A stretch of 64,000 nucleotides of DNA from an uncultured Chloroflexia bacterium (GTDB taxonomy: Bacteria > Chloroflexota > Limnocylindria > Limnocylindrales > CSP1-4): contig CAWHHF010000023.1 in assembly GCA_963829105.1 (NCBI GenBank), positions 12,844-76,843 on the forward strand. The letters run 5' to 3'. Of this stretch, positions 41,367 to 64,000 are shown piece after piece (within the stretch, counting starts at the first letter, position 1; every line of letters begins with the position of its first letter). Made by a program: the position numbers and the translations under genes. The notes under the pieces were generated by a model, which was not told where the DNA came from, made no database searches, and saw only the letters and a list, made by a program, of their open reading frames with translations.

Positions 41367-41943
41367 TTATCCGGCCAGCGCCCGGTCCGCCTCCGCCAGG
41401 ATCCGGTTGAGCTCCGCGACCGGGCGCCTGCTGCCGCGTGTGCAGCTCGTGCTGGCCGTGCTTGGAGCAGGACGAGAGCATCGCGCTGAACTCGTGCAGC
41501 GGCCGCGAGGCCACCGGCCGGTCCGACGCCGCGACCGGAGGCCAGGCGAGCACGCCCATGTCGGCGGCCTGGAAGACGCGCATCGCGTGCTCGATGTCGG
41601 CGCGCGTCCCGTATCGCCGCTCGCCCGTCTCGAAGTCACGCATGAACGCCGCCGTGCCGTCCATTGCGTAGCGGGAGACGGGGGACGGCAGCGGGTAGTC
41701 GAAGGCAGGGTTGCGCGCGCCGAGCACGAACGAGCGGGGCGCGCCGGCCACCGCAGCCTCGACGATGGCCCGCGGGATCCTGGCGATCCCGGTGACCTCG
41801 TCAACCTGCGCGCCTGCGTCGCGCAGGAGCGGGAGCGCCCGCTCCCCGTGGAACCGCAGGCCGACCTCGGCCAGGATGCGCAGGCTCCCCTCGTGGACGC
41901 GGGCCTGCTCGTCGGGGGACAGGAACGCCGCCTGGTAGCGCAT
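41367..41943 (-). pseudogene. MttB-family relic A (N-terminal ~165 codons plus an out-of-frame C-terminal ~15 codons)
   Basis: MRYQAAFLSPDEQARVHEGSLRILAEVGLRFHGERALPLLRDAGAQVDEVTGIARIPRAIVEAAVAGAPRSFVLGARNPAFD...SKHGQHE parallels residues ~25-190 of the intact copy at 36026. A different frame ends in VAELNRILAEADRALAG, compared with AELTRILDAARRAIG at the end of the intact copy. The ~300 central codons are missing. Confidence 0.6.
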
Positions 41944-41951
41944 CGCCTACC

Positions 41952-42690: not shown

Positions 42691-42725
42691 CGTGACGTGA
42701 CCTGACGTGACGTGACCTGACGTGG
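42691..42725. repeat. 2.3 x 15 bp tandem repeat
   Basis: cgtgacgtgacctga occurs twice, followed by cgtgg. Confidence 0.8.
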
Positions 42726-42920
42726 CGCGACGCTACCACCGGGCCCGTGTCCCTGGCCGGCCGGGTCCGCACGGCGCACCGCGTGCCATCCGGGGTCCGT
42801 GGGCGGCGACCGACCGGCGGCCGTTGCGGTGCGCTCGCCCGAGCCGCTCGGCGCCCGGCTCGACGCAGGCTCCGGCTGCACTACACTCTCGCGATCGGAC
42901 CCCACCCTCGAGGTACGCCC

Positions 42921-48984: not shown

Positions 48985-49003
48985 ACCCGGCGGGAGTCCC
49001 TGC

Positions 49004-51238: not shown

Positions 51239-53050
51239 ATGAGCGAACCCCGCGGCAGCCGCGACCTCAACCGCCTCAAGTGGGCGACGATGGTGCTCCC
51301 CATCGTCTTTGTCTGGCTGTTCGAGCTGGGCCGGTTCCTCGTCCTCGACCCGAGGGTCACGGGTGACAACGGCCACGTCGCGTCCGCGATGATCATGGGC
51401 GGGGCGATCGTGGTCTTCGCCACCATCGTCTCCCTGTACCTGGACCGCGCCCAGAAACAGCTGGTCGCCCAGAACAAGGACCTCACCGTCACCCATGCCG
51501 TCAGCTCTGCCGTGCGCGGCGGCCTCTCGCTGCCGGACCTCCTGGAGCAGTCGCTGGACCGGCTGATGACCCAGACCGGCGCCCTGACCGGCATCGTCAG
51601 CGTCAGGGGCGCCGACGGCCAGGCCCTGGTCATCCGGCGCCCGGTCACCCTCCCGGCCGGCCTCACCTGGCTGACGCCCATCCTCAACGCCCAGCCGGAC
51701 CCGGCCGTGGATGGCCCGCGGTACCTCGTCCAGTCCGGCGTGGACACCGGCGTCCTCGACCTGCCGCTGGTCCACGGCTCGGAGCGCATCGGCTACCTCC
51801 GCCTGGCGTTCCGCCCGCCCGTCCAGCCCGACATCTCGGACGCGGCCCTCGCGGACATCGCGGGCGAGATCGCCGGCGCCGTCCAGCTGGGGATCACGGT
51901 CTCCGACCTCCACCGGCGCGAGCTGGAGCGCGAGGCCCTGTACGCGGTCGCCCTCCAGCTCACGGGCCGCAACGACCTGCGCGACGTCCTCGACACCATC
52001 ACCGCGCACGCCCGCGAGCTGCTGGGTGCCGAGCGGGCGGTGGTCTGCCTGAGCGACGCCCGCGACATGACCTCGCGCACCGCGATCAGCCGCGAGCGCC
52101 TGGCGATGGCCGACGACGGCGGGGTGTGCCTCGTCGCCCACGAGCAGAGCTCGGCCCAGCATGCGCGCAACCCTCTCTGCCCGCTCCTTGTCAGGGACGG
52201 CACGGACGCCTGGGCCGCCCGCCCGCTCCGCGGCCCCGACGGGATCCTCGGCGAGCTCTGCGTCGTCCGCTCGGGCGCCCCGTTCACCGCCCAGGAGCGG
52301 AACCTCCTCGGCGCCCTCGCGGACATGGCGTCGATCGCGGTGCGCACGGCCCGCCTCCACGAGGCCGAGGAGCAGTGGACCATCCACGCGGAGCGCGACC
52401 GGATCGCCCGCGAGCTCCACGACAGCCTCGCCCAGGTCCTGGGCGTCATCCACCTGCAGCTCCGGTCGCTCGAGGCCCGCGCCAAGGACGAGGCGAGCCT
52501 GGGCATCGCCGACGAGCTCTCGGCCCTCGCGGAGACGGCCGACGAGGCGTACAGCGACGTCCGGGAGGCGATCCTCGGGCTGCGCGAGACGGTCCGCGAG
52601 GACGACGGCCTCGAGGGCTCGCTGCGCGAGTACCTGCGCAAGTACAGCCGCCAGACCGGGATCGTGGCCACGCTCTCGTGCGAGGGCGACACCCGCCGGG
52701 CGCTCAGCCCGAGGTCGGAGGTCCAGCTCCTGCGGGTCGTCCAGGAGGCGCTCACCAATGCCCGCAAGCACTCGCAGGCGCACCGGGTGGCGGTGCGCAT
52801 CGACTGCCTCGGGCAGGGGACGACGCTCACGGTCGAGGACGATGGCGTCGGCTTCGACCCGTCCTCGGTCGCGAGCTCCATGGAGGGCGGCTTCGGGCTG
52901 AAGTCCATGCGCGAGCGGGTCGAGCAGATCGGTGGCAGTATCGATGTGCATACCGCCCCGAACGAGGGGACGACGATCGTCGTCCGGCTCGACGCTGAGG
53001 ACACGCGTGGGACACCTTCCCCCCAGACTCCGGGTGCTGCTCGTCGATGA
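51239..53050 (+). CDS. Sensor histidine kinase (2 TM + GAF + HisKA_3 + HATPase_c; NarX/LiaS class)
   Basis: Two N-terminal hydrophobic helices and GAF-like regions (DLRDVLDTITAHARELLGAERAVVCL). The phospho-His box is ERDRIARELHDSLAQ, and the C-terminal ATPase has VEDDGVGFD...GFGLKSMRERV. Confidence 0.85.
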   Translation: MSEPRGSRDLNRLKWATMVLPIVFVWLFELGRFLVLDPRVTGDNGHVASAMIMGGAIVVFATIVSLYLDRAQKQLVAQNKDLTVTHAVSSAVRGGLSLPDLLEQSLDRLMTQTGALTGIVSVRGADGQALVIRRPVTLPAGLTWLTPILNAQPDPAVDGPRYLVQSGVDTGVLDLPLVHGSERIGYLRLAFRPPVQPDISDAALADIAGEIAGAVQLGITVSDLHRRELEREALYAVALQLTGRNDLRDVLDTITAHARELLGAERAVVCLSDARDMTSRTAISRERLAMADDGGVCLVAHEQSSAQHARNPLCPLLVRDGTDAWAARPLRGPDGILGELCVVRSGAPFTAQERNLLGALADMASIAVRTARLHEAEEQWTIHAERDRIARELHDSLAQVLGVIHLQLRSLEARAKDEASLGIADELSALAETADEAYSDVREAILGLRETVREDDGLEGSLREYLRKYSRQTGIVATLSCEGDTRRALSPRSEVQLLRVVQEALTNARKHSQAHRVAVRIDCLGQGTTLTVEDDGVGFDPSSVASSMEGGFGLKSMRERVEQIGGSIDVHTAPNEGTTIVVRLDAEDTRGTPSPQTPGAARR

Positions 53051-53699
53051 CCAGCCCCTGTTCCGCAGGGCGCTCGCGACGCTGATCAGCGCCCAGTTCG
53101 ACATGACGGTCGTGGGCGAGGGCGAGAACGGCCGTGACGCCCTGGAGAAGGTCCGGGCGCTGCGTCCCGATCTCGTCGTCATGGACGTGAACATGCCCGT
53201 CGCCTCGGGCGTGGACGGCGTGATCGCGATCCGCGCGGCGGGCATCACGACCCCGATCGTCATGCTGACCGTGTCCGAGGACGACGACGACCTGTTCGAG
53301 TCGATCAAGGCGGGCGCCAACGGCTACCTGCTCAAGAACGTGCGCCCGGAGCAGCTGTTCGAGGACCTGCGCGGCATGATGCGCGGCGAGGCGCCGATCG
53401 CCCCGGCCGTCGCCGGCAGGCTCCTCGAGGCGCTGCGCACCGGCGGGATCCCCACCCGCGGACAGCCCGCCGCCTCTCCCCCGGACGCCGTCCTGACCCG
53501 TCGCGAGTCGGAGATCCTCCAGCTGGTCGCCGCCGGCATGTCCAACAAGGAGATCGCCAACGAGCTGACGATCACCGAGGGGACCGTCAAGAACCACGTC
53601 CACAACGCGCTGGAGAAGCTGCACCTCACGAACCGGGTGCAGGCCGCCGCGTACGCCGTCCGCCAGGGCTACGCGAACCAGGAGCCGAACCGGGACTGA
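53007..53699 (+). CDS. NarL/LuxR-family response regulator
   Basis: RVLLVDDQPLFR...PDLVVMDVNMP...MLTVSEDD forms the receiver domain. LTRRESEILQLVAAGMSNKEIANELTITEGTVKNHVHNALEKL forms the LuxR helix-turn-helix. The GTG start overlaps the kinase 3' end. Confidence 0.9.
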   Translation: MGHLPPRLRVLLVDDQPLFRRALATLISAQFDMTVVGEGENGRDALEKVRALRPDLVVMDVNMPVASGVDGVIAIRAAGITTPIVMLTVSEDDDDLFESIKAGANGYLLKNVRPEQLFEDLRGMMRGEAPIAPAVAGRLLEALRTGGIPTRGQPAASPPDAVLTRRESEILQLVAAGMSNKEIANELTITEGTVKNHVHNALEKLHLTNRVQAAAYAVRQGYANQEPNRD

Positions 53700-53945: not shown

Positions 53946-54347
53946 GTGTCGTCTGAACCGGTGCGCGTGCTGGTCCTCTACAGCCATCCCCTCATGGGGG
54001 AGGGACTGGGGAAGATGCTCGCCGCCGAGCCCGGGGTGATCGTCGACGCCGTGGACATCGGCCTCACGGAGGCGGTGGACGCCGCCATCGCCCGGGATCC
54101 GGACGTGATCGTGGTCGAGGAGGGCGGCGCGGTGGACGCGGCCGACGTCGTCCGCCGGTCGCGCTGCCCCGTGGTCCTGGACGTGGACATCACCACGACC
54201 CGTGCCTGGACGCTCCGCCGGGAGACCCTCTCGACGCGCCCCGACGACTTCCTGGCCACGATCCGCGCGGTCGTCGGCTGCTCCGGCCGGCCCGCGCCGG
54301 GCGCCGATCCCGACCGCGGCCTGCAGCCGGCGGTCGTTCCGGGCTAG
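53946..54347 (+). CDS. Hypothetical receiver-like protein (possible pseudo-receiver)
   Basis: VRVLVLYSHPLMGEGLGKMLAAEPGVIVDAVDIGLTEAVDAAIARDPDVIVVEE has a CheY-like beta-alpha pattern, but the acidic pocket and phospho-Asp positions are not conserved (E where D is expected). GTG start. Confidence 0.4.
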   Translation: MSSEPVRVLVLYSHPLMGEGLGKMLAAEPGVIVDAVDIGLTEAVDAAIARDPDVIVVEEGGAVDAADVVRRSRCPVVLDVDITTTRAWTLRRETLSTRPDDFLATIRAVVGCSGRPAPGADPDRGLQPAVVPG

Positions 54348-54358
54348 GCTGATCGCCC

Positions 54359-54877
54359 ATGGGTGACGACATCCGCCGTGCTGCCACCGCCCCGGCGTTC
54401 GATCCGCGAGCGACCCCCGTTCACCGCCGCCGCGTCCTGCTGTTGATCGGGGTGACCGCGCTCGCCGGCGGCAGCCTCGCCGCCCTGCTGGAGGGATGCG
54501 CCGGACCGCCTGTCCCGGTGGAGCTCGACGTCGACCCGGACACCCTGGTGCCGGGTACGCCTGTCGAGGTGCCGTTCACGGTCCAGCTCGGCGGCAACGC
54601 GGTCGCCGGGTCGGCCTGGCTGGTGAAGCAGGCGTCGGGGGAGATCATCGCGTTCGACCCGCGCTGCACCCACGCCCTGTGCTCCTACCGCTGGGAACCG
54701 GGTCCGGCAGACTTCTCGTGCAACTGCCACGACGGCAAGTTCAGGCTGGACGGGACCGTCATCTCGGGCAAGCCGCCCAAGCCGCTGAACCGCTTCCCGG
54801 TGCACGTGACGGGCACCGTGGTGGAGGTCGACGTGCCGGGGGACTTCGCCACCCCGAAGGCGTCCCTGCCGGCGTAG
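54359..54877 (+). CDS. Exported Rieske [2Fe-2S] protein (twin-arginine signal, possible lipobox)
   Basis: HRRRVLLLIGVTALAGGSLAALLEGC is the Tat motif plus an L-x-G-C lipobox-like site. The Rieske ligands are CTHALC...CNCHDGKF. Confidence 0.85.
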   Translation: MGDDIRRAATAPAFDPRATPVHRRRVLLLIGVTALAGGSLAALLEGCAGPPVPVELDVDPDTLVPGTPVEVPFTVQLGGNAVAGSAWLVKQASGEIIAFDPRCTHALCSYRWEPGPADFSCNCHDGKFRLDGTVISGKPPKPLNRFPVHVTGTVVEVDVPGDFATPKASLPA

Positions 54878-55014
54878 GAGGCGCTCCTGCCGCCGCTCCT
54901 GCCGCCGCTCCTACCGGCGCCCTGCCGCGGCCCCTGGCGGCGCGGTTGCGGGCTCCTTGGCACCCCCTTGCCGGGCCCTTCCGCACCCACCCGTGGGACC
55001 CACAGGGCCGGACG

Positions 55015-55054
55015 GTACAGGCGGCGTGGTGCGTCCTGGCGCCGCCCTGTACCG
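55015..55054 (+). terminator. Strong GC hairpin after the Rieske gene (candidate terminator/attenuator; no clear U-tract)
   Basis: GGTACAGGCGGCG - 13 nt loop - CGCCGCCCTGTACC, a 13 bp stem with one bulged C. Confidence 0.35.
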
Positions 55055-55146
55055 CAGTTCTATCCCCCGACGGATGCAAACGGCCTCGCGCGCACCCGAT
55101 GATTGGCGTAGGTCGGATTCCGATTCCCGCCGGCCAAGGAGTACAG

Positions 55147-56136
55147 GTGCCATTCATGTCCCGGGTCACGTCCCTGACCTCGATGCCCGAAGCACAGCTG
55201 AACCGCTGGATCCGGCGGATCGGCCTGCTGCTGATCATCGGCATCGTCGCCTTCGTCGCGTTCTACGCCGTCGACCGCTTCCGCGCCCCGGCCGCCCCGC
55301 TCATCGACCGGGAGATGGCCGCGATGGAGGAGGCCGTGCGGGCCGATCCGACGGATATCGCCTCCCGGGGCAGGCTGGCGGACCTGTATCTCGCCGCCAA
55401 CCGCTACGACGATGCCATCGCCCAGTACACCGAGATCATCAAGACAGGCAAGCAGGACGAGGCAGGCTACACGAGCCGGGGCCGGGCCTATGAGTTGAAG
55501 GGCGACCTGACTGCCGCGGCCGCCGACTACAACAAGGTCATCGAGATCGGTGCCCCGGGCGAGATGGCCAACGTGGACCCGATGATGGAGATCGCCTACT
55601 ACGGTCTCGGCGCGATCGCGCTCAAGCAGGACCGGCCCGACGAGGCCGTCACGCAGCTCCTCAAGGCCCTCGCGATCAAGCGCACCGACGCCGACGCCAT
55701 GAACCTGCTCGGGGCGGCCTACGTGAAGGCGGGAACGCCGGACAAGGCCGTGGAGCCGTTGCGGAAGGCGATCGAGTTCGTGCCGATCGGCTGGGCCGAT
55801 CCCTACCAGACGCTGGCCGACGCGTACAAGGCGTCCGGTGACGCCGCTCTGGCCGAGTGGGCCGGCGCGATGGCCGCGGCCAACACCGGCGACGTCGCCG
55901 GCGCGGTCACCCGCCTCACGGCCATCGTGGACGGGCCGGCCGGGCTCGATGCGCGCGTCGGCCTCGGCCTGCTGGCGGAGATGCGCGCCGACGCGACCAC
56001 GGCCGAGCAGTGGTACCGCAAGGCCCTCGAGCTCGATCCCGAGAGCACGTCCGCCAAGCTCGGCCTGGGCCGCGTGACCGGCACGACCGGAGGACACCCC
56101 TCGATCGCGCCGTCGCCCAGCTCCGGGAGCAACTGA
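55147..56136 (+). CDS. Membrane-anchored TPR-repeat protein
   Basis: AAGGAG lies 5 nt upstream of the GTG at 55147 (an ATG at 55156 is also possible). One TM segment (IGLLLIIGIVAFVAFYAV) is followed by several TPR-like units (LADLYLAANRYDDAIAQYTEIIK, RGRAYELKGDLTAAAADYNKVIE, ...WYRKALELDP). Confidence 0.75.
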   Translation: MPFMSRVTSLTSMPEAQLNRWIRRIGLLLIIGIVAFVAFYAVDRFRAPAAPLIDREMAAMEEAVRADPTDIASRGRLADLYLAANRYDDAIAQYTEIIKTGKQDEAGYTSRGRAYELKGDLTAAAADYNKVIEIGAPGEMANVDPMMEIAYYGLGAIALKQDRPDEAVTQLLKALAIKRTDADAMNLLGAAYVKAGTPDKAVEPLRKAIEFVPIGWADPYQTLADAYKASGDAALAEWAGAMAAANTGDVAGAVTRLTAIVDGPAGLDARVGLGLLAEMRADATTAEQWYRKALELDPESTSAKLGLGRVTGTTGGHPSIAPSPSSGSN

Positions 56137-57212
56137 TGACCGCGTCCCCGTCCGCCGCCCAGTCGGTCGCTGGCGCCCCCGCACCCGACGTGTCGGCAAC
56201 GCCGCCCGACGGTCCGGGCGCCGAGGTCGAGGAGGCGCCCCCCGAGAAGCGGCGTCGAAAGCTACTCCTCCTGCTGCTGCTCCTGGCCGGCTTCGTGCTG
56301 CTGCTCGCGCTCGCGATCTGGTACCTGCTGTTCCGCCAGCCGATCCCGGTCCCGACCATCCCTGGCGAGACGGTCATGCCCGGCTACGTCACCTCGATCT
56401 ACGGTGCCTCCCGCCCGATGGGCGTCGCCGTGAACGCCGCCGGCGACCGCGTCTACGTGGGCGCGACCGCGGGCGACCAGACCGCGCTGGTCTTCGACGC
56501 CGGGGGCAACCAGGTGGCCAAGCTGCTGCCCCCGGTTTCGACCGGCGACAGCCACGTGCCGGTGTACCTGGCGGTGAACCCGCAGACGGGCGACATCCTC
56601 GTCTCAGACCGTCCCACGGCTTCCATCTACGTCTACGACGCCCAGGGCACTTTCCTTCGGACCCTGCAGCCGCCGGCCGAGATCAAGGGCTGGCAGCCGC
56701 TCGGCATGGCGTTCGACGCGGCCGGCAACCTGTACGTCACCGACGTCGGCCAGGTCCCGAACGTCGTCCGCGAGCTCGACCCGTCCGGCAAGCAGGTCCG
56801 CGTCCTCGGGGCGACCGCCGGGCTCACCTTCCCGAACGGTGTCGCCCTCGACAACGCCGGGTACGCCTACGTGACCGACTCCAACAACGGGCGGCTGCTC
56901 GTCTTCGCGCCGGATGGGACCGTCGTCGCCACGGTCAGCCGTGGGATCGGCAAGGGCAACCTCGGCCTGCCCCGCGGCGTGGCGATCGACCAGCAGGGTC
57001 GCGTGTACGTCGTGGACTCGAGCGCCGACTCGGTGTTCGTCTACGGCCAGTACAAGCAGGGCGCCACGGGACTCGACTTCCTCGGCACCTTCGGCACCGA
57101 GGGCGTCGCCAACGGAACATTCGCCTATCCCAACGACATCGCGGTCGACGCGCGTGGGCGGCTGTACGTCGCCGACTCGGCCAACGACCGGGTGGAGTTG
57201 TGGAGCTACTGA
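56136..57212 (+). CDS. Membrane-anchored NHL-repeat beta-propeller protein
   Basis: The ATG overlaps the TPR gene stop (ATGA). A poly-Leu TM segment (RRRKLLLLLLLLAGFVLLLALAIWYLLF) is followed by six NHL-like blades (PMGVAVNAAGDRVYV, PLGMAFDAAGNLYVTD, PNGVALDNAGYAYVTDSNNGRLLVF, PRGVAIDQQGRVYVVDS, PNDIAVDARGRLYVADSANDRVELW). Confidence 0.85.
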   Translation: MTASPSAAQSVAGAPAPDVSATPPDGPGAEVEEAPPEKRRRKLLLLLLLLAGFVLLLALAIWYLLFRQPIPVPTIPGETVMPGYVTSIYGASRPMGVAVNAAGDRVYVGATAGDQTALVFDAGGNQVAKLLPPVSTGDSHVPVYLAVNPQTGDILVSDRPTASIYVYDAQGTFLRTLQPPAEIKGWQPLGMAFDAAGNLYVTDVGQVPNVVRELDPSGKQVRVLGATAGLTFPNGVALDNAGYAYVTDSNNGRLLVFAPDGTVVATVSRGIGKGNLGLPRGVAIDQQGRVYVVDSSADSVFVYGQYKQGATGLDFLGTFGTEGVANGTFAYPNDIAVDARGRLYVADSANDRVELWSY

Positions 57213-57318
57213 GCTGGCTTCAGCAAGGGAGGTGAGGAAGGGAAGCGCTTGCGCCGCCGCCAGGACCTGGCGGTCCATGTCAAGTCCACGTAGCTAAGAG
57301 AAAGGAGGTGAGGACAGT

Positions 57319-58539
57319 TTGAAACGACTGATGCTGCTCATAGCAGCCGGTAGTCTCTGGCTGTTCCTTGCCGCGGTTCCCGTCTTCGCAGACGGCGGAC
57401 CGCATGTGGCTGCGAACAACAGCGGCGTCAACGGCATCACTGCCGATGGATGCGCCGGCTGTCACCGAGCCCACTCGGCGCAGGGCGATTTCCTGCTCAT
57501 CGCGAGCTCCGGAACCACGCTCTGCCTGACCTGCCACGGGGCCACCGGTCTCGGCGCGACCACCGACGTCGAGTCCGGCGTCCAGTACACGCTGGGCACC
57601 ACCGACGTCCGCGGCACCACCGTCCTCGGCTATCTCCGGGGCGGCGGCTTCGTCAACGCCCGGATCGGGTCCGGCCAGGCCGTCCGAGTCGCGTACCTGA
57701 GCGGTACCGAGGTTCGCTTCAACGGCAAGGTCCCGGTCCGGACCGCGGGCTCGCAGCCCGTCACCTCGGCCCACCTGCCGAACGCGGCCGGCGTGGTCGG
57801 AGCGGCGGACGGCGTCGCCTGGGGCAACGGCCCCAACAGCGCAACGCCGTTTGCCGGCCCCGCTGTCGAGGTCGAGTGCGGCACCTGCCACAACCCGCAC
57901 GGCAACGGCCAGTACCGGATCCTCAATCCGATCCCTGACCCCGCCGCCACGGGCACGGACGTGTTCACCCCGGTCGCATCTCCCGGAGCCGTCGTCACCG
58001 ACGCGGCCCTCCCGGGCGCCGGCGACAACCGCAACTACACCATCATCCAGACGAACGGCGGCACCGGGACGCTCACGGCGAACCAGGTCACCGCGCTCGC
58101 CCTGCCGGCAACGGCCGGCGACTACTTCCGCCGCAAGGTTCCGTGGAACGGGACGAGCGGCACGGCCAACGACGCGCCGAACGGCCTGTCCGCGACCTTC
58201 TTCACCCAGATCTCGACGTGGTGCCTGACATGCCATTCCCGCTACCTGAGCGCCGGGTATGACGTCAAGGAAGCCGACGCGATCTACACGTACCGGCACA
58301 CGTCCAACGCGTCGTCCCGGAACTGCATCACGTGCCACGTGGCACACGGTTCCAACGCGCAGATGACGGGTCCCTACTCCGCCAACCTCAAGAACCCGGG
58401 CGGCTCCACCGCCACGGTCGGCGACAGCCGGCTGCTCAAGGTGGACAACCGCGGGACGTGCCAGATGTGCCACGACCCGACGGGGACGATCCCCGCCGGC
58501 CAGCAGTCCGGCCCGACGCCCAACCCGGTCCTTCCCTAG
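57319..58539 (+). CDS. Secreted six-heme c-type cytochrome
   Basis: TTG start 6 nt after AAAGGAGGTGAGG. The signal peptide is MKRLMLLIAAGSLWLFLAAVPVFA. There are six CXXCH motifs: CAGCH (45), CLTCH (69), CGTCH (187), CLTCH (302), CITCH (336), CQMCH (381). Three of them are CXXCHxxH. Confidence 0.9.
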   Translation: MKRLMLLIAAGSLWLFLAAVPVFADGGPHVAANNSGVNGITADGCAGCHRAHSAQGDFLLIASSGTTLCLTCHGATGLGATTDVESGVQYTLGTTDVRGTTVLGYLRGGGFVNARIGSGQAVRVAYLSGTEVRFNGKVPVRTAGSQPVTSAHLPNAAGVVGAADGVAWGNGPNSATPFAGPAVEVECGTCHNPHGNGQYRILNPIPDPAATGTDVFTPVASPGAVVTDAALPGAGDNRNYTIIQTNGGTGTLTANQVTALALPATAGDYFRRKVPWNGTSGTANDAPNGLSATFFTQISTWCLTCHSRYLSAGYDVKEADAIYTYRHTSNASSRNCITCHVAHGSNAQMTGPYSANLKNPGGSTATVGDSRLLKVDNRGTCQMCHDPTGTIPAGQQSGPTPNPVLP

Positions 58540-58758
58540 CACCATCGACCGCGTGGTGGCCGGCGACGCAAGTCCCGGCCACCCGCATCCTGCATCCGGG
58601 CCGAAGCCGCGCAGAAGAGCCGCCAACGGTCGTTTGACGTCTCCTCCGCAGGGCTCCCGCCCAGCTCCACCGGTGCCCCGCTCTACCGCCGAACCGGCCT
58701 GTCGATGGCCTCCACGGGTGAAACTCCAGCACCTCGCCATGATGAAGTCGACGCCAGC

Positions 58759-61143
58759 ATGACCAGCCAGCAGCGACCCGCACGCCGACGGGCCGGCCCC
58801 CTGTTCGGGGTGCTGCTCGTCGTCGTGGGCACGGTGGGAGCCCTGACCCCGGCCGTGCCGGCGGTGCGCGCCCTGGATCCCACGCCGGCCCCCTCCGTCG
58901 ACCCCACGCCGGCCCCGACGGCCGACCCGACGCCGGCCCCTACGTCGGATCCCACGCCCCCGCCCGACCCCACGCCGGCCCCTACGTCGGATCCCACGCC
59001 CCCGCCCGACCCCACGCCGGCCCCCACGTCGGATCCCACGCCCCCGCCGGATCCGACGGCGCCCCCTACCGAGGCGCCGTCACCGACCGCGGTTCCCTCG
59101 GGTGACCCTCTTCCGTCGGTGGAGCCCAGCGCGGCCCCCTCGGGTGACCCGGCGCCGTCCGTCCAGCCCAGCGCATCGCCGTCCCAGGCCCCCATCGGCA
59201 CGCAGGTCGCGCACGCCTGGATCGACACCGTGAACCAGGACGGCACGGTGAGCGTCCCCGGCCTGGTCGACGCCCCGCTTGGCGCCGCGCAGCGGTTCAC
59301 GGTCTACCGCGTCCGGTTCCAGCTCGTCAACGACGCCGACACGGACGCCACGCTGGTCCCCGTCATCGAGTTCTCGGGCGGCTCCGCGGACTGGGCGGCC
59401 CTGCCCATGGTCGACCCGGACCACGGCAAGGCGTTCTACGGCGCGTCCGACGACGGCCGCGTGTTCGACGCGCGCCGGACGACGATCGCGGCGGCCGACC
59501 TCCGTCTCGCCCAGGCCACCGATCCGCTCGCGAAGGCCGTGCCCGGCGAGGCCAGCGCGGGCTCGGTGCTCGCGACCCTGGACCTCCCCGCCCACAGCTT
59601 CACCGAGGTCGAGTTTGCCGTCCGGGCCACCGTGGACGCGAAGTGGGGGGCGGAGTACTCGTTCCGCCTCGTGGACGGCTCCACCGAGCTTCCCGGGGTG
59701 CGGGCAGCGCTGGTCATGGGCGCCAAGCCGGCCCTGGACCTGTCGCCCGGGCAGCGCAAGGGCGCGCCGGTGGATGACCCCGTGCCGCTCTACAAGCTGG
59801 ATCCCTCGGTCGCCTCCACCGATCTGCCGCTGGCGACCTCGACCGGCAGCGGTCAGACGGCGACCTACGCGCTGGCGCGGCCCGTCGCGGCCCCTGCCGC
59901 CCAGGATTCGCCGCACGTCATCTCCGGGCTGGCCTCGGACGCGTGCGCCTCCTGCCACGTCGCACACGACGCGCAGGGCCTGTCGCTGCTTCGCCAGCCC
60001 GATCCCCAGTCGTCGACCTGCTTCACGTGCCACGACGGGACGGGCGCCTCCTCCGACGTCCAGAGCGACTGGTCGAGCTCGTCGATCCCCGCCAACGACC
60101 CGACGACGTCGGCCTGGTACTCCCACCCCGCCACGTCGTCCTCGGACCACACGTCGGCGCTGGCGAACGAGTTCGGGGGCACGCTCAACCGCCACTCCGC
60201 CTGCGCCGACTGCCACCAGCCGCACCTCGCCGACGGGATCAGGCCTGTCAACAGCGTCGGCGGCTGGTCGACCTCGGGCGCCATCGCGGGTGCGTCCGGC
60301 GTCTCCGTGGCCAACGGCGCGGCGGGCGTGGCCCCGACGTACACCCTGCAGACGACATCGACCTTTGAATACGAGCTCTGCTTCAAGTGCCACTCCGGCT
60401 TCACGCAGCTACCCGCGCAGGATCCTGCCCACCCGAGCCGGTGGGCGCTGGACAAGGGCATCGAGCTGAACCCGGCCAACGTCTCCTACCACCCCGTGGA
60501 GGCCGCGGGGAAGAACCAGACGAACGCCATGGCGCTGAGCCTCGCCGGGACCTCCCCCTACAAGCTCTGGGTCTTCGGGACCAACGACACGATCCGCTGC
60601 GCCAACTGCCACGCCGCCGGCACCGCCGCCACCCAGGTCCCCAAGCCGGCCGCGGACGCGACCCTCGCCGACCACTCCTCGTCGAACCGCGGCATCCTGA
60701 TCGCCCAGTACAAGGATCGGACGCTCAAGCCCCGCGGGGCCTACTCCGCCCAGGAGTTCGCGCTGTGCTACGTCTGCCACGCGGAGGCTCCGATGGTCGA
60801 CGATAGCGGTGACGTGCGCACCGACACCAACTTCAGCTGGCACGGCTATCACCTCGCCGACATCAGCGGCCACGGGCTCGGCGGCACGGACATCGACGTC
60901 CCCGGCGCAGGTCCCGGCAACGCCACCTGCGCCGAGTGCCACTTCCGGATCCACGGATCCGCGCTGGCCGTGAACGGCCAGGTGCCCGCCACGGGACTGG
61001 TGAACTTCGCGCCCAACGTCCAGACCATGCGCGGGGTCCTGAAGTTCGTCCCGGCGACGCCGACCTCGATGGGCACGTGCACCCTGACCTGTCACGGCAA
61101 GGCCCACGACGCCTACGGCTACGACTACCCGACGACTCCCTGA
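58759..61143 (+). CDS. Large secreted multiheme c-type cytochrome (7 CXXCH + 1 CX3CH) with a Pro/Thr-rich repeat linker and a central non-heme domain
   Basis: The signal/anchor is RRRAGPLFGVLLVVVGTVGALTPAVPAVRA, followed by (DPTPAPTSDPTPPP)x3. A ~200 aa heme-free domain comes next. The heme motifs are CASCH, CFTCH, CADCH, CFKCH, CANCH, CYVCH, CAECH and CTLTCH. Confidence 0.85.
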   Translation: MTSQQRPARRRAGPLFGVLLVVVGTVGALTPAVPAVRALDPTPAPSVDPTPAPTADPTPAPTSDPTPPPDPTPAPTSDPTPPPDPTPAPTSDPTPPPDPTAPPTEAPSPTAVPSGDPLPSVEPSAAPSGDPAPSVQPSASPSQAPIGTQVAHAWIDTVNQDGTVSVPGLVDAPLGAAQRFTVYRVRFQLVNDADTDATLVPVIEFSGGSADWAALPMVDPDHGKAFYGASDDGRVFDARRTTIAAADLRLAQATDPLAKAVPGEASAGSVLATLDLPAHSFTEVEFAVRATVDAKWGAEYSFRLVDGSTELPGVRAALVMGAKPALDLSPGQRKGAPVDDPVPLYKLDPSVASTDLPLATSTGSGQTATYALARPVAAPAAQDSPHVISGLASDACASCHVAHDAQGLSLLRQPDPQSSTCFTCHDGTGASSDVQSDWSSSSIPANDPTTSAWYSHPATSSSDHTSALANEFGGTLNRHSACADCHQPHLADGIRPVNSVGGWSTSGAIAGASGVSVANGAAGVAPTYTLQTTSTFEYELCFKCHSGFTQLPAQDPAHPSRWALDKGIELNPANVSYHPVEAAGKNQTNAMALSLAGTSPYKLWVFGTNDTIRCANCHAAGTAATQVPKPAADATLADHSSSNRGILIAQYKDRTLKPRGAYSAQEFALCYVCHAEAPMVDDSGDVRTDTNFSWHGYHLADISGHGLGGTDIDVPGAGPGNATCAECHFRIHGSALAVNGQVPATGLVNFAPNVQTMRGVLKFVPATPTSMGTCTLTCHGKAHDAYGYDYPTTP
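58924..59049 (+). repeat. 3 x 42 bp in-frame tandem repeat encoding DPTPAPTSDPTPPP
   Basis: gacc(c/-)cacgccggccc(c/t)tacgtcggatcccacgcccccgcc(c/g), three near-identical copies. Confidence 0.85.
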
Positions 61144-61233
61144 CGCAGCGGCGCAGGTACCCCGCCCGCGCCTGCGCGCCTGACCCATGGGGGGCCGTTC
61201 GCGGATGCACCCCATGGTGGTCGCCGCGCCCGG

Positions 61234-61251
61234 CTGTATCGAGCGATACAG
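61234..61251. promoter_or_regulatory. Palindrome CTGTATCG-AG-CGATACAG upstream of the TPR-ccdA-resB operon (candidate operator)
   Basis: Perfect 8+8 inverted repeat, unusually AT-rich for this genome. A related site lies at 51179, and an ATGTATCG half-site lies at 61397. Confidence 0.4.
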
Positions 61252-61453
61252 GCCCGATCCGATTCCTCCACCCAAGGGCCCGCCCCGATCCCGGCCGAAA
61301 TGTGCGCCCCGACGGATGGGCGCATGGGGCCCGGTTCGGGACAATGGCAGCAGGTGTCAAGCCGCGGTCCCCCGCGGCATCGTATGAGGGTTCCACGATG
61401 TATCGCACGTCGGCGCGCGACGCAGGTCGCCCGCGCCTCGCAGGAGGCCGCGC

Positions 61454-62845
61454 GTGACCCGCGGTCTCCCCGCCACGGGTCACGAGGCCCAGGAGTCCGC
61501 GCTGCTGGCCCAGCTCGGTCTCCCGGCCAGCGCCTCCCCCGAGGATGTCGACAACCTCCACCAGGCCGCGAGCCAGTACCTCGCGTCCGCGCCTCCGGAG
61601 CTCCGCGGATGGGCCCATGCCCAGGCGTCGGCGCTGGACGAGGCGTACCTCCAATTGACCGACCCGGTCGGCCTCCAGGGCTCGGCCCTCAGGAGTCCGG
61701 CAAGGCCGCCCGCGGTCGTACCCGGCGGACCGGCGACACCTCCGGTCCGCCGGGGCTCCGTTCCCGCGGAAGCCCCGGTCCTCGTGGCCGCCGCGACCGG
61801 CGCGCCCATGGCGGACGCTGCCGTCGCCGATGCTTCGGCCGACGACGTGTTCGACGAGGACGTGATCGAGCCCGACGTCATCGAGCTTGACCCCGCGACA
61901 CAGCCCGCAGTCGGAGAGCCCGATCTCGACGACCTGGCCGTCCTCTACGCCTCGGTCACCCCGAGCGCCCACCCGGACACGCTCCCGGCCGCCAAGCCGA
62001 AGGCCAACTCCCCGGCGCCCGCTCCCGCCCGCCGTCCTGCCCGTCCCGCGGCCGCGGCAGCCGCCGCCCCGCACGCCGCCGCCCCGCAGGCCGCCAACCC
62101 CTGGAAGCGGCTGGTCCTCAGCGCGGTCGCTGTGCTCGCGGTCGTCGCCGTCGTGTTCGGCGCCATGCAGGTGGCCGGCGCGGTCGGCGGATCGCCCGGG
62201 ACGAGCGCCGACACGGCGGCGCAGGCTTCCGCCCCGGCCGTCGATCTCGCCAAGATCAGCACACTCATGACGGCGCTCGCGGCCAACCCCAACGACACCG
62301 CGACGCTGCTCGCCCTGGCCAACGAGTACTACGCGGGCGAGCAGTACACCGACGCCGGCAACTGGCTGGACAAGCTCCTCGCCCTCGAGCCCAACAACGT
62401 CGACGGTCTCCTGGCCCGCGGCGCCGTCAGCTTCAACCTCAACGACCTCCCGGCTGCCGAGACCACCTGGATGAAGGTCGTGGCCATCGACCCGAACAAC
62501 GTCGAGGTCCACTACGACCTGGGCTTCCTCTACCTCAACCAGTCGACCCCGAACTGGGCCGGCGTCCAGAGCGAGTGGAACAAGGTCATCGCGCTCGATC
62601 CCACCTCGCAGCTCGCCCAGACCGTCAAGTCCCACCTCGACTCGCTGGTCGCGAACTCGATGATCCCGGCCTCCCCGGCCGGGGCCGGCGCGGCGCCGGG
62701 TGGCTCTCCGGCTGCTCCGGCCGGCGCCAGCGCGGCACCGGGCAGCTCCCCGGCGGCGTCTCCGGCGGCGTCGCCGGCCACCAGTGCGACCCCGGCGGCC
62801 ACCCCGGCCCCCAGCCCCTCCCCGGCGGCGAGCGCCACGCCGTGA
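61454..62845 (+). CDS. Bitopic TPR-repeat protein with a Pro/Ala/Ser-rich tail, translationally coupled to ccdA
   Basis: AGGAGG lies 5 nt before the GTG. The layout is: cytoplasmic N-domain, acidic stretch, one TM segment (LVLSAVAVLAVVAVVFGAMQV), TPR units (LLALANEYYAGEQYTDAGNWLDKLLALEPNN, ...TWMKVVAIDPNN, ...EWNKVIALDP), then a PAS-rich tail. Confidence 0.75.
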   Translation: MTRGLPATGHEAQESALLAQLGLPASASPEDVDNLHQAASQYLASAPPELRGWAHAQASALDEAYLQLTDPVGLQGSALRSPARPPAVVPGGPATPPVRRGSVPAEAPVLVAAATGAPMADAAVADASADDVFDEDVIEPDVIELDPATQPAVGEPDLDDLAVLYASVTPSAHPDTLPAAKPKANSPAPAPARRPARPAAAAAAAPHAAAPQAANPWKRLVLSAVAVLAVVAVVFGAMQVAGAVGGSPGTSADTAAQASAPAVDLAKISTLMTALAANPNDTATLLALANEYYAGEQYTDAGNWLDKLLALEPNNVDGLLARGAVSFNLNDLPAAETTWMKVVAIDPNNVEVHYDLGFLYLNQSTPNWAGVQSEWNKVIALDPTSQLAQTVKSHLDSLVANSMIPASPAGAGAAPGGSPAAPAGASAAPGSSPAASPAASPATSATPAATPAPSPSPAASATP

Positions 62846-63723
62846 ACGAGCTCGGCAGTGCGATCGGCATCGGCATCGCCTTCGTCGGCGGCGTCGTGTC
62901 GTTCGCGTCCCCCTGCTGCCTGCCGCTCGTGCCGGCATACCTGGCCTACATGATGGGCGCGACCGGTGAGGGCACCGCCGGTCGCCGCCCGGCCCTCATG
63001 CACGGGCTGTCGTTCGTGCTCGGCTTCTCGCTCGTGTTCGTCGCCTTCTACGCCGCCATCGGCGCCCTGGGCGCCTTCATCGACCGCCACGTGCTCAACA
63101 TGATCGGCGGCGCGCTCCTCGTCTTCCTCGGCCTCCAGGTCGCGGGCATCATCAACGTCCGGGCCCTGTGGCGCGACACCCGCGCACTGCCCTCGATGGG
63201 CGGCGGGCTCGTGATGGCCGGCGGCACCGGGAGCGGCGGCGACGGCGGTCCCATCGGCGGCGGTCCGGCCGGCGGCGGCACCGGGAGCTCGGGCACCGGC
63301 GGCGGTCCGGCCGCCACAGCCGCCGCCACCGGCATCAGCACCGGCAGCATGGGCTTCGGTGCGATCGCCAGCCCCGGCGAGCGACCGGGCTACCCGCGGT
63401 CCTTCCTGTTCGGCCTGCTGTTCGCGGCGGGCTGGAGCCCCTGCATCGGCCCGATCCTGGGCGGGATCCTCGGCCTGGCCACCGCCACGTCCAGCGTCCT
63501 CCAGGGGACGGTCCTGCTGGTCGCCTACGCGGCCGGGCTCGCCATCCCGTTCCTCGCCGTGGCCCTGGGCGCGTCCTGGGTCGCCAGGCGGCTGACCGTG
63601 GTCGGCCGCCACCACCACGCCGTGTCCATGATCACGGGCCTCCTGCTCGTGACGGTCGGCGTGCTGATGCTCACCAACATGCTCGGCCGGCTGGCGACCC
63701 TCGGGTCGCCCTTCGGTCTCTGA
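62842..63723 (+). CDS. ccdA: Cytochrome c biogenesis thiol-reductant transporter CcdA (DsbD-core family)
   Basis: The GTG overlaps the preceding stop (GTGA). It has the two conserved SPC motifs (FASPCCLPLVPAYL and GWSPCIGPILGG) and a ~60 aa Gly-rich insert between the halves. Confidence 0.88.
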   Translation: MNELGSAIGIGIAFVGGVVSFASPCCLPLVPAYLAYMMGATGEGTAGRRPALMHGLSFVLGFSLVFVAFYAAIGALGAFIDRHVLNMIGGALLVFLGLQVAGIINVRALWRDTRALPSMGGGLVMAGGTGSGGDGGPIGGGPAGGGTGSSGTGGGPAATAAATGISTGSMGFGAIASPGERPGYPRSFLFGLLFAAGWSPCIGPILGGILGLATATSSVLQGTVLLVAYAAGLAIPFLAVALGASWVARRLTVVGRHHHAVSMITGLLLVTVGVLMLTNMLGRLATLGSPFGL

Positions 63724-63737
63724 GGAGGTAGTCGGAC

Positions 63738-64000
63738 ATGACCGAAGAGGTCCACACCCGGCCGCTTCCGCCGACTGGCGCTCCGGCCGCCGCGGCGGCC
63801 GGCCCCACGCTCATGGATCGCATCGACCGGTTGCTGGAAGGCCTGTGGCACTTCCTCACCTCGATGCGCGTGGCCATGATCCTGATGCTCCTGATCGCCG
63901 CGCTGGGCATCCTCGGCTCGCTCATCATCCAGGCACCTTCCGGGGTCCTGGGCGACGCCGAGGCCAAGGCCAGCTGGCTGGACGAGATCCGGCCGAAGTA
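63738..64000 (+). CDS. resB: Cytochrome c biogenesis protein ResB/CcsB (System II), N-terminal part; continues past the right edge
   Basis: GAGGAGG lies 9 nt upstream. LWHFLTSMRVAMILMLLIAALGILGSLIIQAP is the typical ResB first TM segment. It follows ccdA. Confidence 0.85.
   Translation, partial: MTEEVHTRPLPPTGAPAAAAAGPTLMDRIDRLLEGLWHFLTSMRVAMILMLLIAALGILGSLIIQAPSGVLGDAEAKASWLDEIRPK

Follow-up and report, generated by a model that had tools for sequence, protein, structure and literature searches.

The window analysed here (a stretch of 64,000 nt from an uncultured bacterium of the Chloroflexota, class Limnocylindria, and not of the Actinobacteria) ends inside a run of plus-strand genes for multihaem cytochromes, tetratricopeptide and NHL-repeat proteins, and cytochrome maturation. 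GC3 frame analysis and Pfam backed every gene, the strand and the order listed in a preliminary description of this DNA. The two translational couplings proposed there are seen in the sequence: the stop codon of TPR1 overlaps the NHL start (TGATG) and that of TPR2 overlaps the GTG start of ccdA (GTGA). The features are:

about 51239-53050, + strand: sensor histidine kinase (two N-terminal membrane segments, GAF, HisKA_3 and HATPase_c, from Pfam and hydrophobicity; start codon uncertain)
53034-53699, + strand: NarL/LuxR-type response regulator (Pfam Response_reg and GerE)
53961-54347, + strand: conserved small ORF of 128 aa, between the regulator and the Rieske gene (GC3 frame)
54359-54877, + strand: Rieske1 (Pfam Rieske; CTHALC...CNCH, twin-arginine motif, lipobox-like LEGC)
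about 55156-56136, + strand: TPR1 (Pfam TPR families; N-terminal membrane anchor, extracytoplasmic TPR domain)
56136-57212, + strand: NHL-repeat beta-propeller (Pfam NHL, 5e-28; N-terminal anchor, membrane segment at residues 39-68)
57319-58539, + strand: MHC6, hexahaem cytochrome (signal peptide, six CXXCH)
58551-58586, + strand: GC-rich hairpin directly 3' of the MHC6 stop codon
58705-61143, + strand: MHC8 (seven CXXCH and a C-terminal CTLTCH, i.e. CX3CH; eight haem sites, one non-canonical)
61454-62845, + strand: TPR2 (Pfam; N-terminal domain of about 215 aa in the cytoplasm, one membrane segment (residues 216-247), outward TPR domain)
62842-63723, + strand: ccdA, System II thiol-reductant transporter (Pfam DsbD_TM; multiple membrane segments)
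63738-64000, + strand: resB (ccsB), first 88 codons only, cut by the window end (reading frame)

Localisation was assigned by simple hydrophobicity and motif inspection only. By these means each non-maturation protein has one N-terminal hydrophobic segment (residues 17-44 in TPR1, whose start codon may be 55099, 55156 or 55183), as had been proposed for all of them; TPR2, with its internal segment, is the exception. An LCP gene also lies within the window, which fits a monoderm wall. The region around the hairpin (58537-58680) folds at -64.2 kcal/mol (z = -2.75 against shuffles), and a terminator scan found no T-tract type; the fold hints weakly at a transcript-end or stabilising element.

Recurrence and divergence of the island

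The island is widespread in uncultured soil and freshwater Chloroflexota and Actinomycetota. Neighbourhood comparison recovered the same gene order in about 70 independent species-level genomes, which places the arrangement far beyond chance. In the Limnocylindria it extends over about 17 kb (the window holds its left two thirds), and its conservation in the class is very wide and apparently vertical. Beyond the point at which the window ends, the order in relatives continues with resC, resA and a gene for a membrane-anchored 10-haem NapC/NirT-type cytochrome; in locus L001, for instance, the genes after a resB orthologue (Pfam ResB) are Cytochrom_C_asm, a thioredoxin-like one and Cytochrom_NNT. 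The Actinomycetota MAGs carry a reduced core (TPR1-NHL-MHC6-TPR2-System II-NapC-type, with kinase and regulator), the minimal form of which is devoid of MHC8. The NHL gene was found in all complete loci of both phyla, MHC6 paralogues frequently stand in tandem (often 2-3 per locus), and one locus (L076) keeps the module without maturation genes.

At the left end, most Limnocylindria loci have a histidine kinase gene ahead of the module. The regulator reached 193 bits against the NCBIfam NarL model (cutoff 250), and the kinase of the reduced core is NarQ/NarX-like at 141 bits, likewise under the cutoff. The 128-aa ORF, to which Pfam and NCBIfam assigned no family and for which the PDB offered only an insignificant receiver-domain match (E = 0.37), occurs in nearly all Limnocylindria loci and is part of a conserved 'frame' block. 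Within this frame, TPR1-NHL-MHC6-MHC8 form a fast-diverging cassette, with 37 to 93 % identity to the window versus 84-94 % for the flanking regulator among close relatives. The four members co-vary (r = 0.72-0.95; TPR1 with NHL, r = 0.95, and with MHC6, r = 0.90), whereas TPR2 follows ccdA (r = 0.91-0.95) and Rieske1 follows the frame genes, neither of them co-varying with the cytochromes.

Redox proteins, maturation genes and a proposed quinone link

The signature protein of the island, MHC6, is predicted to be a secreted c-type cytochrome of about 380 residues (signal cleavage at VFA|DGGPH), and at 50 % identity its family falls into about 860 clusters (E <= 1e-10). An alignment of 150 sequences holds 12 invariant histidines for six haems, namely those of the six CXXCH motifs and exactly six more. 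Hence all haems are predicted to be bis-His ligated, and MHC6 looks like an electron-transfer protein rather than a catalytic one. The same 150 sequences all begin their mature part with D-[G/N]-G-P-H (down to about 30 % identity), and as the histidine of this start is among the six outside the CXXCH motifs, it should have to ligate a haem. The scaffold is otherwise fixed, save for a single hypervariable insertion (61-458 aa) between haems 3 and 4. The AF2 model (pLDDT 78, pTM 0.82) is rich in beta strands, its only long low-confidence arm being residues 1-37 (pLDDT < 50). A Foldseek search of this model against PDB folds returned no match, and profile searches of PDB sequences (to E = 10) retrieved nothing but a weak match to MtrA.

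From its N-terminal anchor, MHC8 runs through a linker rich in Pro and Thr (about 110-150 residues) and a non-haem domain (without any Pfam family) into a haem domain, the first module of which resembles the N-terminal one of MHC6 (41 % identity over 64 aa, E = 2e-9). The eight haem sites first counted are all there, with the correction that one is CX3CH instead of CXXCH; this site (C-terminal CTLxCHG) is conserved in about 50 loci, while total length varies from about 460 to 1370 aa.

PetC3 is a lipoprotein found outside the b6f complex, and Rieske1 is a predicted Tat-exported, stand-alone [2Fe-2S] protein of a PetC3-like small type, probably with a lipid anchor. Its signal combines PRRRxLLLxG with a lipobox L-x-[AG]-C, both conserved; 51 loci share the ligand motifs (CxHxxC...CxCH), and about 45 have the ligand, twin-arginine and lipobox-like motifs conserved. 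The top PDB match is 5cxm_A (110-residue chain, E = 2e-10), deposited as 'cytochrome b6/f complex iron-sulfur subunit'. Rieske1 and the cyanobacterial stand-alone PetC3 (5cxm) are both small and have bc-type ligand boxes; they differ in context, as Rieske1 heads a multihaem island.

The maturation genes belong to System II (CcsBA/ResBC-CcdA-ResA), with ccdA and resB in the window and resC and resA following in relatives. In departure from known System II loci, ccdA is translationally coupled to, and co-varies with, the membrane-anchored TPR2, whose TPR domain is weakly CcmH/CycH-like; orthologues give a clearer match to CcmH_CycH (3.6e-8). TPR partners resembling apocytochrome chaperones belong to System I, and we know of no description of one for System II. 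In seven loci TPR2 has a C-terminal cupredoxin domain (weak amicyanin match, below cutoff), absent from the protein in the window. The view that the island possesses maturation genes of its own became doubtful, given that in Actinomycetota-type loci ccdA-resBC-resA adjoins hemA, presumably the position of the housekeeping maturation locus. Menaquinone biosynthesis genes are further neighbours in some loci.

The window itself has neither a quinol-dehydrogenase gene nor a cytochrome b, as previously observed, and this apparent lack comes from the position of the window end, for relatives carry both nearby. Judging by its sequence, the 10-haem NapC/NirT-type protein of the relatives is the putative 'missing' quinol dehydrogenase. 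It matches Thermincola ImdcA with 31 % identity over 116 aa (E = 9e-15) and again at the C-terminus, the common region being the membrane anchor and the N-terminal NapC/NirT part; the NrfH and TorC models of NCBIfam matched below cutoff. ImdcA is a decahaem purified from the membrane fraction and a proposed oxidiser of the quinone pool (PMC7911101). In at least 18 relatives a Rieske-cytochrome b-decahaem operon with its own canonical Rieske (Rieske2) is directly adjacent; in the closest relatives with sequence on this flank, the island has no such neighbour. Its cytochrome b comes near the NCBIfam model ExtP (selenite/tellurite-reduction operon; 226 bits, cutoff 290). A canonical bc-type complex just outside the window had been named as what would undo the idea of a distinct electron-transfer module; the neighbouring operon does contain a cytochrome b gene, but it does not count among the well-characterised operons with a known function.

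Electron-export clusters of monoderms and the proposed role of the island

Among known systems, the electron-export clusters of the monoderm Fe(III) reducers Thermincola and Dethiobacter come nearest. Thus, while the exact island was not found described in the searchable literature (as first supposed), the kind of arrangement is not new. The chain of Thermincola potens and T. ferriacetica (ImdcA, PdcA, CwcA, OcwA; PMC7911101, PMC6703420) also resides in a monoderm and likewise includes a membrane-anchored decahaem with a NapC/NirT-like N-terminus as proposed quinol oxidase, an all-bis-His hexahaem as proposed wall-crosser and a larger multihaem cytochrome at the surface. On the other hand, neither sequence nor fold comparison detected a relation of MHC6 and MHC8 to OmcS (the template for CwcA) or OcwA, the mature part of the CwcA construct starts with EEPYY (primer in the paper's supplement) and not D-G-G-P-H, and the present island has in addition the Tat-lipoprotein Rieske, TPR1-NHL, the kinase and regulator, and the embedded System II. 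The hosts differ as well (high-GC soil and freshwater Chloroflexota and Actinomycetota versus thermophilic Firmicutes).

The multihaem clusters of Dethiobacter alkaliphilus, another monoderm, are overexpressed on ferrihydrite or thiosulfate, and their NHL and TPR proteins were proposed to aid secretion, orientation or complex assembly (PMC10376724). In content they are comparable (several multihaem cytochromes, a CymA-like quinol oxidase, NHL, TPR and flanking regulators), whereas phylum and cytochrome families differ and neither a Rieske protein nor an embedded System II was reported. MHC6 also resembles Geobacter OmcS as a secreted hexahaem of about 380 residues, predicted all bis-His, with a conserved histidine near the mature N-terminus. 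In OmcS the N-terminal histidine serves inter-subunit haem ligation. No match of MHC6 to OmcS, OmcE or OmcZ emerged from PDB profiles (to E = 10) or Foldseek, and the MHC6 model is beta-rich.

Gene content and topology support a coherent multihaem redox module that faces outward and is controlled by a two-component system, and extracellular or envelope-spanning electron transfer, as initially proposed, is still the best reading of the block. We lean slightly towards a working model in which the island as a whole carries respiratory electrons over the single-membrane envelope. The hypervariable MHC6 insertion, the tandem paralogues, and the linker and variable length of MHC8 are reminiscent of surface structures, and elsewhere, too, multihaem clusters associated with extracellular electron transfer include NHL and TPR genes, as in Desulfovibrio ferrophilus (PMC5815863) and the Uet system (PMC9900912). 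Against this stand the lack of detected similarity (PDB profile, Foldseek) of MHC6 and MHC8 to characterised electron-export cytochromes, and an apparent housekeeping maturation locus, often near Rieske/cytochrome b, with which ordinary respiration fits equally well. To our knowledge, the Limnocylindria and soil Actinomycetota concerned are not known to reduce metals, and many are thought to be aerobes.

Ordinary respiration would have MHC6, MHC8 and the decahaem connect terminal oxidases or reductases of soluble substrates with the quinone pool and the neighbouring Rieske/cytochrome b/decahaem complex, the cytochromes clustering with a single System II locus because they are its main clients. 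System II is indeed embedded in both phyla, beside hemA or menaquinone genes, at least 18 loci have the Rieske2 operon right beside them, conservation in the class is wide and apparently vertical, and the cupredoxin fused to TPR2 in seven loci recalls blue copper proteins, which are ordinarily soluble-type respiratory carriers. We nonetheless find this rather unlikely, since a dedicated two-component regulator argues for conditional use, the long MHC8 tether suggests reach past the membrane surface, and core respiratory carriers do not usually diverge far faster than their frame or show a hypervariable loop and tandem paralogues as this cassette does; L076, moreover, has the module but not its maturation genes, and NHL/TPR partners are a recurrent mark of extracellular electron-transfer clusters (PMC10376724, PMC5815863, PMC9900912). 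Far less probable is a catalytic reductase or oxidase for a soluble N, S or Se compound, on the pattern of the octahaem enzymes that reduce nitrite, tetrathionate or sulfite, with the NapC-type protein as quinol-linked donor. NapC/NirT/NrfH-type donors typically serve such enzymes, one of the eight MHC8 sites is an unusual CX3CH, and the adjacent cytochrome b is close to ExtP, but Pfam, NCBIfam and PDB gave no catalytic multihaem family, the full distal histidine set of MHC6 leaves no open coordination site, and MHC8 is wholly missing from the minimal Actinomycetota module.

A special case of envelope-crossing transport, which we hold to be doubtful, makes MHC6 a candidate self-polymerising filament subunit of new fold, with MHC8 as base or cap and TPR1-NHL as assembly machinery. 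The invariant N-terminus has its haem-ligating histidine in the low-confidence arm of an otherwise confident monomer, the combination of conserved core, one hypervariable surface insertion and tandem paralogues resembles flagellin or pilin logic, the haem domain of MHC8 starts with an MHC6-like module, and for the insoluble hexahaem CwcA of Thermincola a polymer spanning the wall was modelled (PMC7911101). Similarity to OmcS, OmcE and OmcZ is, however, absent in fold and sequence, the histidine may equally ligate a haem of its own chain, and the low confidence of the arm may merely reflect the haem-free model.

For electron transfer across the envelope in its general form, we infer the electron path, localisation and physiological role as follows. 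The membrane-anchored 10-haem NapC/NirT-type cytochrome would exchange electrons with menaquinol, MHC6 would relay them through the wall zone, and MHC8, tethered to the membrane by its Pro/Thr-rich linker, would present its eight haems at the cell surface or further out. The TPR1-NHL pair may be a specific assembly or scaffolding partner of the two cytochromes, TPR2 and System II (ccdA-resB-resC-resA) would attach the haems, and the GAF kinase and NarL regulator would turn the island on, while Rieske1 may act as a side entry or exit of higher potential or as a redox-sensing element. For these uncultured soil and freshwater lineages, electron flow through the island would either reduce acceptors outside the cell or take up electrons from donors there.

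Gene content and conserved order of the island

The GC content of the window is 72-75% from end to end, and raw ORF lists were therefore worthless. The genes of the island (the multihaem-cytochrome block from ~51 kb to the window's right end) were called by third-position GC frame plots, translation, motif counts and Pfam. Between 51 and 64 kb the plots indicated a single coding frame at each point, always on the + strand, and the following genes were recovered (short names and supporting evidence in brackets):

~51239-53050, +, histidine kinase (HK; Pfam GAF and HisKA_3)
53034-53699, +, NarL-type regulator (RR; Pfam Response_reg and GerE)
53961-54347, +, conserved ORF of 128 aa, of no family (sORF; GC frame)
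54359-54877, +, stand-alone Rieske protein (Rieske1; CTHALC...CNCH)
~55156-56136, +, membrane-anchored TPR-repeat protein (TPR1; Pfam TPR)
56136-57212, +, membrane-anchored beta-propeller (NHL; Pfam NHL)
57319-58539, +, secreted hexahaem cytochrome (MHC6; six CXXCH)
58705-61143, +, tethered large cytochrome of 812 aa (MHC8; seven CXXCH and CTLTCH)
61454-62845, +, membrane-anchored TPR-repeat protein (TPR2; Pfam TPR)
62842-63723, +, ccdA (Pfam DsbD_TM)
63738-64000, +, resB, start only, the gene being cut by the window's end (reading frame)

The genes named in the preliminary description, their same-strand order and both translational couplings (overlaps TGATG in TPR1/NHL and GTGA in TPR2/ccdA) were borne out by frames, motifs and Pfam, and the conserved sORF is an addition to them. 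The eight haem sites claimed for MHC8 are right as a total (seven CXXCH and one CX3CH), while the single N-terminal anchor or signal claimed for every non-maturation protein applies to most: each has one N-terminal hydrophobic segment except TPR2, in which hydrophobicity places the membrane segment after a cytoplasmic domain of ~215 residues. The window also holds an LCP gene at 20228-21937 and genes of the pentose-phosphate pathway; the Chloroflexota are generally regarded as monoderm.

The sORF was present in nearly all Limnocylindria loci and in none of the Actinomycetota-type loci, and it co-varies with kinase and regulator; searches of Pfam, NCBIfam and the PDB assigned it to nothing at significance, and its resemblance to receiver domains is insignificant. 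A DosS/DosR-like hypoxia sensor was considered for the kinase and dropped, as DosT and DevS matched by the ATPase domain only. At 73% GC, a consensus scan for promoters and terminators was uninformative. A stable GC-rich hairpin lies right behind the MHC6 stop (58537-58680, +; z = -2.75 against shuffles) and would agree with the hexahaem gene being differentially expressed or its transcript being stabilised; behind the MHC8 stop there is a shorter one (~61144-61178), in a 140-nt stretch that folds no better than shuffles (z = 0.04).

Relatives were sought in GTDB, each species represented by one genome, and of the 160 obtained the best 77 loci were compared. Nearly all of these come from Limnocylindria-type Chloroflexota MAGs recovered from soil, sediment, permafrost, lakes and aquifers, and every carrier of the island is an uncultured MAG. 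Named MHC6 homologues belong to "Candidatus Limnocylindrales bacterium", "Chloroflexi bacterium RBG_16_72_14" or "Chloroflexota bacterium". The host is thus a member of the Chloroflexota, class Limnocylindria (alias Ellin6529 or RIF-CHLX; bioRxiv 10.1101/2021.08.23.457424), and no actinobacterium. A tblastn search with all island proteins recovered the order HK-RR-sORF-Rieske1-TPR1-NHL-MHC6(x1-3)-MHC8-TPR2-ccdA-resB-resC-resA-NapC-type in essentially all of the 77 loci with sufficient flank. In a complete 3.6-Mb relative (OY970218.1; MHC6 80% identical) the same order runs on through resB, resC and a thioredoxin-like resA to a 568-aa Cytochrom_NNT (NapC/NirT) gene, whose product has ten CXXCH and one membrane segment; such a NapC-type gene (Pfam Cytochrom_NNT, 10 CXXCH) follows resA in ~50 related loci. 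Thus, resC and the further partners expected to the right (resA and the NapC-type gene) do exist in relatives, and from those 80-88% identical we infer that the window continues likewise. The quinol-oxidising component seems to be missing because the window ends at resB.

Upstream of the island the window holds a formate-dehydrogenase-like molybdopterin subunit gene (42711-44831, +) with an in-frame TGA (43179-43181; context ...SCNRT*HAPSV...), a context typical of a selenocysteine active site, and it shares the window with SelB (32516-34531, -) and a SelD-like gene of the AIR-synthase family (38879-40228). Two MttB-family (trimethylamine-methyltransferase-like) genes (34799-37501, +; 40921-41946, -) neighbour a FAD oxidoreductase gene and these selenium-utilisation genes. 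Between the formate-dehydrogenase-like gene and the island stand NuoF-like (46456-48984) and NuoG-like (48863-50056) genes, a pair also found upstream of the island in ~30 relatives.

The cytochromes MHC6 and MHC8

MHC6 stands for a new, clearly delimited family of hexahaem cytochromes, none of whose relatives has a solved structure. Two word-indexed searches yielded 1656 and 2457 matches, and among 1.84 billion representatives the family comprises 354 (E ≤ 1e-30) or 860 (E ≤ 1e-10) clusters at 50% identity. In a 150-sequence alignment of both of its subfamilies, the six CXXCH and exactly six other histidines (H5, H28, H128, H170, H303 and H319 of the mature chain) are invariant, therefore all six haems should be bis-His ligated, which points to a role in electron transfer rather than catalysis. 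The mature N-terminus D-[G/N]-G-P-H, right behind the signal peptide, is invariant down to ~30% identity, and the haem spacing is near-constant except between haems 3 and 4, where 61-458 residues mark one hypervariable insertion site.

An AlphaFold2 (AF2) model built on the 150-sequence alignment reached a pLDDT of 78 and a pTM of 0.82, with only the first 37 residues poorly placed (a shallow alignment of 35 close homologues had given a pLDDT of 40). Against the PDB, Foldseek returned nothing at E ≤ 0.001 (best E 2.3), haemless models of coil-rich haem proteins being hard targets, and the profile search gave only a marginal match, to the paired-CXXCH region of MtrA. MHC6 has, therefore, no detectable relative among OmcS, OmcE, OmcZ, MtrC and OcwA; an OmcS-like identity found support in neither search.

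MHC8 consists of an N-terminal anchor, a Pro/Thr-rich linker of ~110-150 residues, a domain with no significant Pfam, NCBIfam or PDB assignment, and a haem domain that starts with a module resembling the N-terminus of MHC6 (41% identity over 64 aa, E = 2e-9). Its C-terminal CTLxCHG motif is kept in ~50 loci, while its length ranges across loci from ~460 to 1370 aa (tetrahaem short forms are known). The export of both cytochromes (by a signal peptide in MHC6) is predicted from sequence only.

Frame, cassette and maturation genes

For every gene we measured how identical it is to its counterpart in the window, and correlated these values across loci. HK, RR, sORF, Rieske1, TPR2 and ccdA (the frame) were mutually correlated at r = 0.85-0.97 in all loci. 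In the 29 loci whose regulator is >= 83% identical, TPR1, NHL, MHC6 and MHC8 (the cassette) reached r = 0.72-0.95 among themselves and r = 0.03-0.69 against the frame (0.03-0.53 without ccdA), cassette identity spanning 37-93% and regulator identity 84-94%. We read this as TPR1 and NHL being probable co-adapted, specific partners of MHC6 and MHC8 in a cassette that may diversify or recombine as one unit, as surface structures often do, with Rieske1 and TPR2 presumably going functionally with the regulatory/maturation frame. The co-variation provides bioinformatic evidence for NHL/TPR proteins as specific partners of such cytochromes.

A second hexahaem subfamily (mature N-terminus ADNGPH, >2400 matches) has named members from Actinobacteria or Actinomycetes. 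Four of its loci encode a reduced set, (HK-RR)-TPR1-NHL-MHC6(x1-3)-TPR2-(ccdA)-resB-resC-resA-NapC-type, lack Rieske1 and mostly MHC8, and adjoin hemA or menaquinone (futalosine-pathway) genes, and one locus (L076) reads TPR1-NHL-MHC6-MHC8-TPR2-NapC-type, with maturation genes absent. Taken together, these define an invariant core of TPR1, NHL, MHC6, TPR2 and the NapC-type protein, in most cases enclosing System II; by Pfam, both phyla conserve the NHL and TPR families together with HK/RR. In the Actinomycetota-type islands a hemA with an N-terminal MerR/HTH fusion stands directly behind the NapC-type gene, and the islands are flanked by a pair of adjoining radical-SAM genes, of which one encodes a SPASM domain (L079, 1170-3472; L080, 1163-3459; L082, 18860-21011).

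System II starts in the window with ccdA and resB and is carried on in relatives by resB, resC and resA (Pfam ResB, Cytochrom_C_asm and Redoxin/AhpC-TSA). The maturation genes had been described as the island's own: they do lie within it, but the hemA adjacency suggests that they may be the genome's general maturation locus and no private copy. TPR2, weakly CcmH/CycH-like and coupled to ccdA, is by reasonable inference an apocytochrome chaperone, and with it System II has a candidate chaperone of the TPR kind. A minority of the relatives (among them L001, 14042-15526; L011, L054, L058, L059 and L071) have a TPR2 that ends in a cupredoxin (type-1 copper) domain with a weak amicyanin-like match and the ligand motif C-x2-H-x2-M. 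We rejected it as a core feature, since it occurs in 7 loci only and is absent from the window, where TPR2 ends in a low-complexity Pro/Ala/Ser tail.

In ~45 related loci Rieske1 keeps both its twin-arginine signature (PRRRxLLLxG) and a sequence resembling a lipobox (L-x-[AG]-C); it conserves all cluster ligands and disulfide cysteines, and co-varies with regulator and maturation genes. Its best solved relative is a 110-residue chain (5cxm_A, E = 2e-10) deposited as a cytochrome b6/f complex iron-sulfur subunit, which we take to be the stand-alone PetC3 Rieske of cyanobacteria.

A proposed electron path across a monoderm envelope and its alternatives

On balance, we lean towards reading the island as a regulated multihaem electron path across the monoderm envelope, running inward or outward. 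The main rival, which we hold to be rather improbable, is that these lineages use the island's proteins as their everyday respiratory carriers outside the cytoplasm, in a cluster with the maturation system and a bc-type complex. By tblastn there is no cytochrome b within the 64-kb window, as had been noted. A Rieske/cytochrome b operon adjoins the island in at least 18 relatives. It encodes a canonical Rieske protein of its own (CTHLGC...CPCH), a fused cytochrome b6/subunit-IV-like cytochrome b (whose scores approach, without reaching, the cutoffs of the NCBIfam models for cytochrome b6 and for 'ExtP' of a selenite/tellurite-reduction operon) and a c-type decahaem of ~386 aa. The operon lies directly 3' of the NapC-type gene in 12 loci (L068, 18415-21195; L006, L017, L020, L023, L029, L055, L065, L069, L071, L073 and L074) and directly 5' of the kinase in six (L034, L035, L042, L045, L060 and L075); L001 (one contig with L003), the nearest relative whose flank is available, has an FdhD gene in that place behind the NapC-type gene. 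That the cytochromes form a catalytic reductase is very unlikely, the predicted bis-His ligation of MHC6 speaking for electron transfer.

As a special case of the envelope path, at which several features hint, we tentatively entertain that MHC6 might be a new structural class whose D-[G/N]-G-P-H arm lets subunits polymerise to a haem wire through the wall or outside the cell, with the tethered MHC8 as its nucleus and the co-evolving TPR1-NHL pair as its assembly factors; we regard this as doubtful. If true, a monoderm-specific nanowire system unrelated to that of Geobacter would exist in abundant, as yet uncultured Chloroflexota and Actinomycetota of soils and freshwater. Compared with the OmcS, OmcE and OmcZ nanowires, MHC6 gave no fold match (AF2 model, best Foldseek E 2.3) and no sequence match.

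The closest parallels come from other monoderms. In Thermincola, the membrane decahaem ImdcA, periplasmic PdcA, hexahaem CwcA and surface OcwA make up a proposed electron path over the Gram-positive wall, in which CwcA, insoluble, was modelled on OmcS as a wall-spanning polymer (PMC7911101, PMC6703420), and ImdcA, purified from the membrane fraction of Thermincola ferriacetica, is the proposed oxidiser of the quinone pool (PMC7911101). Dethiobacter alkaliphilus has clusters of multihaem cytochromes, a CymA-like quinol oxidase, NHL/TPR proteins and regulators that are overexpressed on ferrihydrite or thiosulfate reduction (PMC10376724), and NHL propellers are likewise found beside cytochromes of this kind in Desulfovibrio ferrophilus (PMC5815863) and the Uet system (PMC9900912). 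With the Thermincola/Dethiobacter type the island shares a membrane-anchored NapC/NirT/CymA-type quinol dehydrogenase (in relatives), cytochromes predicted to be exported and to carry bis-His haems, NHL/TPR proteins and a regulator; by BLASTP the NapC-type decahaem of relatives is 31% identical to ImdcA over 116 aa (E = 9e-15), with a second C-terminal match (ImdcA sequence from the PMC7911101 supplement). In contrast, neither MHC6 nor MHC8 matched OmcS or OcwA in PDB profile and sequence searches (for the MHC6 model, also in Foldseek at E <= 0.001). An NHL/TPR context was not found in PMC6703420, PMC12954529, PMC11475568 or PMC10415592, and an 'OmcS-companion' NHL/TPR cluster was set aside as evidence; the 2024 OmcS paper names neither NHL nor TPR.

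Thus, from the Thermincola, Dethiobacter and NHL parallels, the island's recipe is already known, and the preliminary description of the arrangement as unrecognised stands only for the island itself: the literature on these taxa with multihaem, NHL or TPR yielded no account of it (one Chloroflexi-wide survey, by its Methods, counted only cytochromes with >=20 haems), whereas the recipe has precedents in monoderm clusters (PMC7911101, PMC10376724). What is new are the host lineages, a Rieske protein of the Tat-lipoprotein kind, the way System II (often together with the Rieske/cytochrome b/decahaem complex) is integrated, the frame/cassette structure, and cytochrome families without solved or curated relatives, the generic paired-CXXCH domain aside.

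One island-bearing MAG (L055, VEOW01000005.1) is named 'Mn-Chloroflexi-1', isolate MnB_4, which suggests an origin in a manganese-related enrichment or sample and is a possible pointer to the island's physiological substrate.

To our knowledge, the Limnocylindria and the related Actinomycetota lineages are abundant in soil, aquifers and lakes, are almost entirely uncultured, and have no place among the organisms regarded as electroactive or metal-cycling. A conserved, regulated path of this kind in a monoderm, of which metagenomes hold thousands of proteins (~860 clusters at 50% identity), would bring a large overlooked group to the organisms able to exchange electrons with partner cells, humic substances or minerals.
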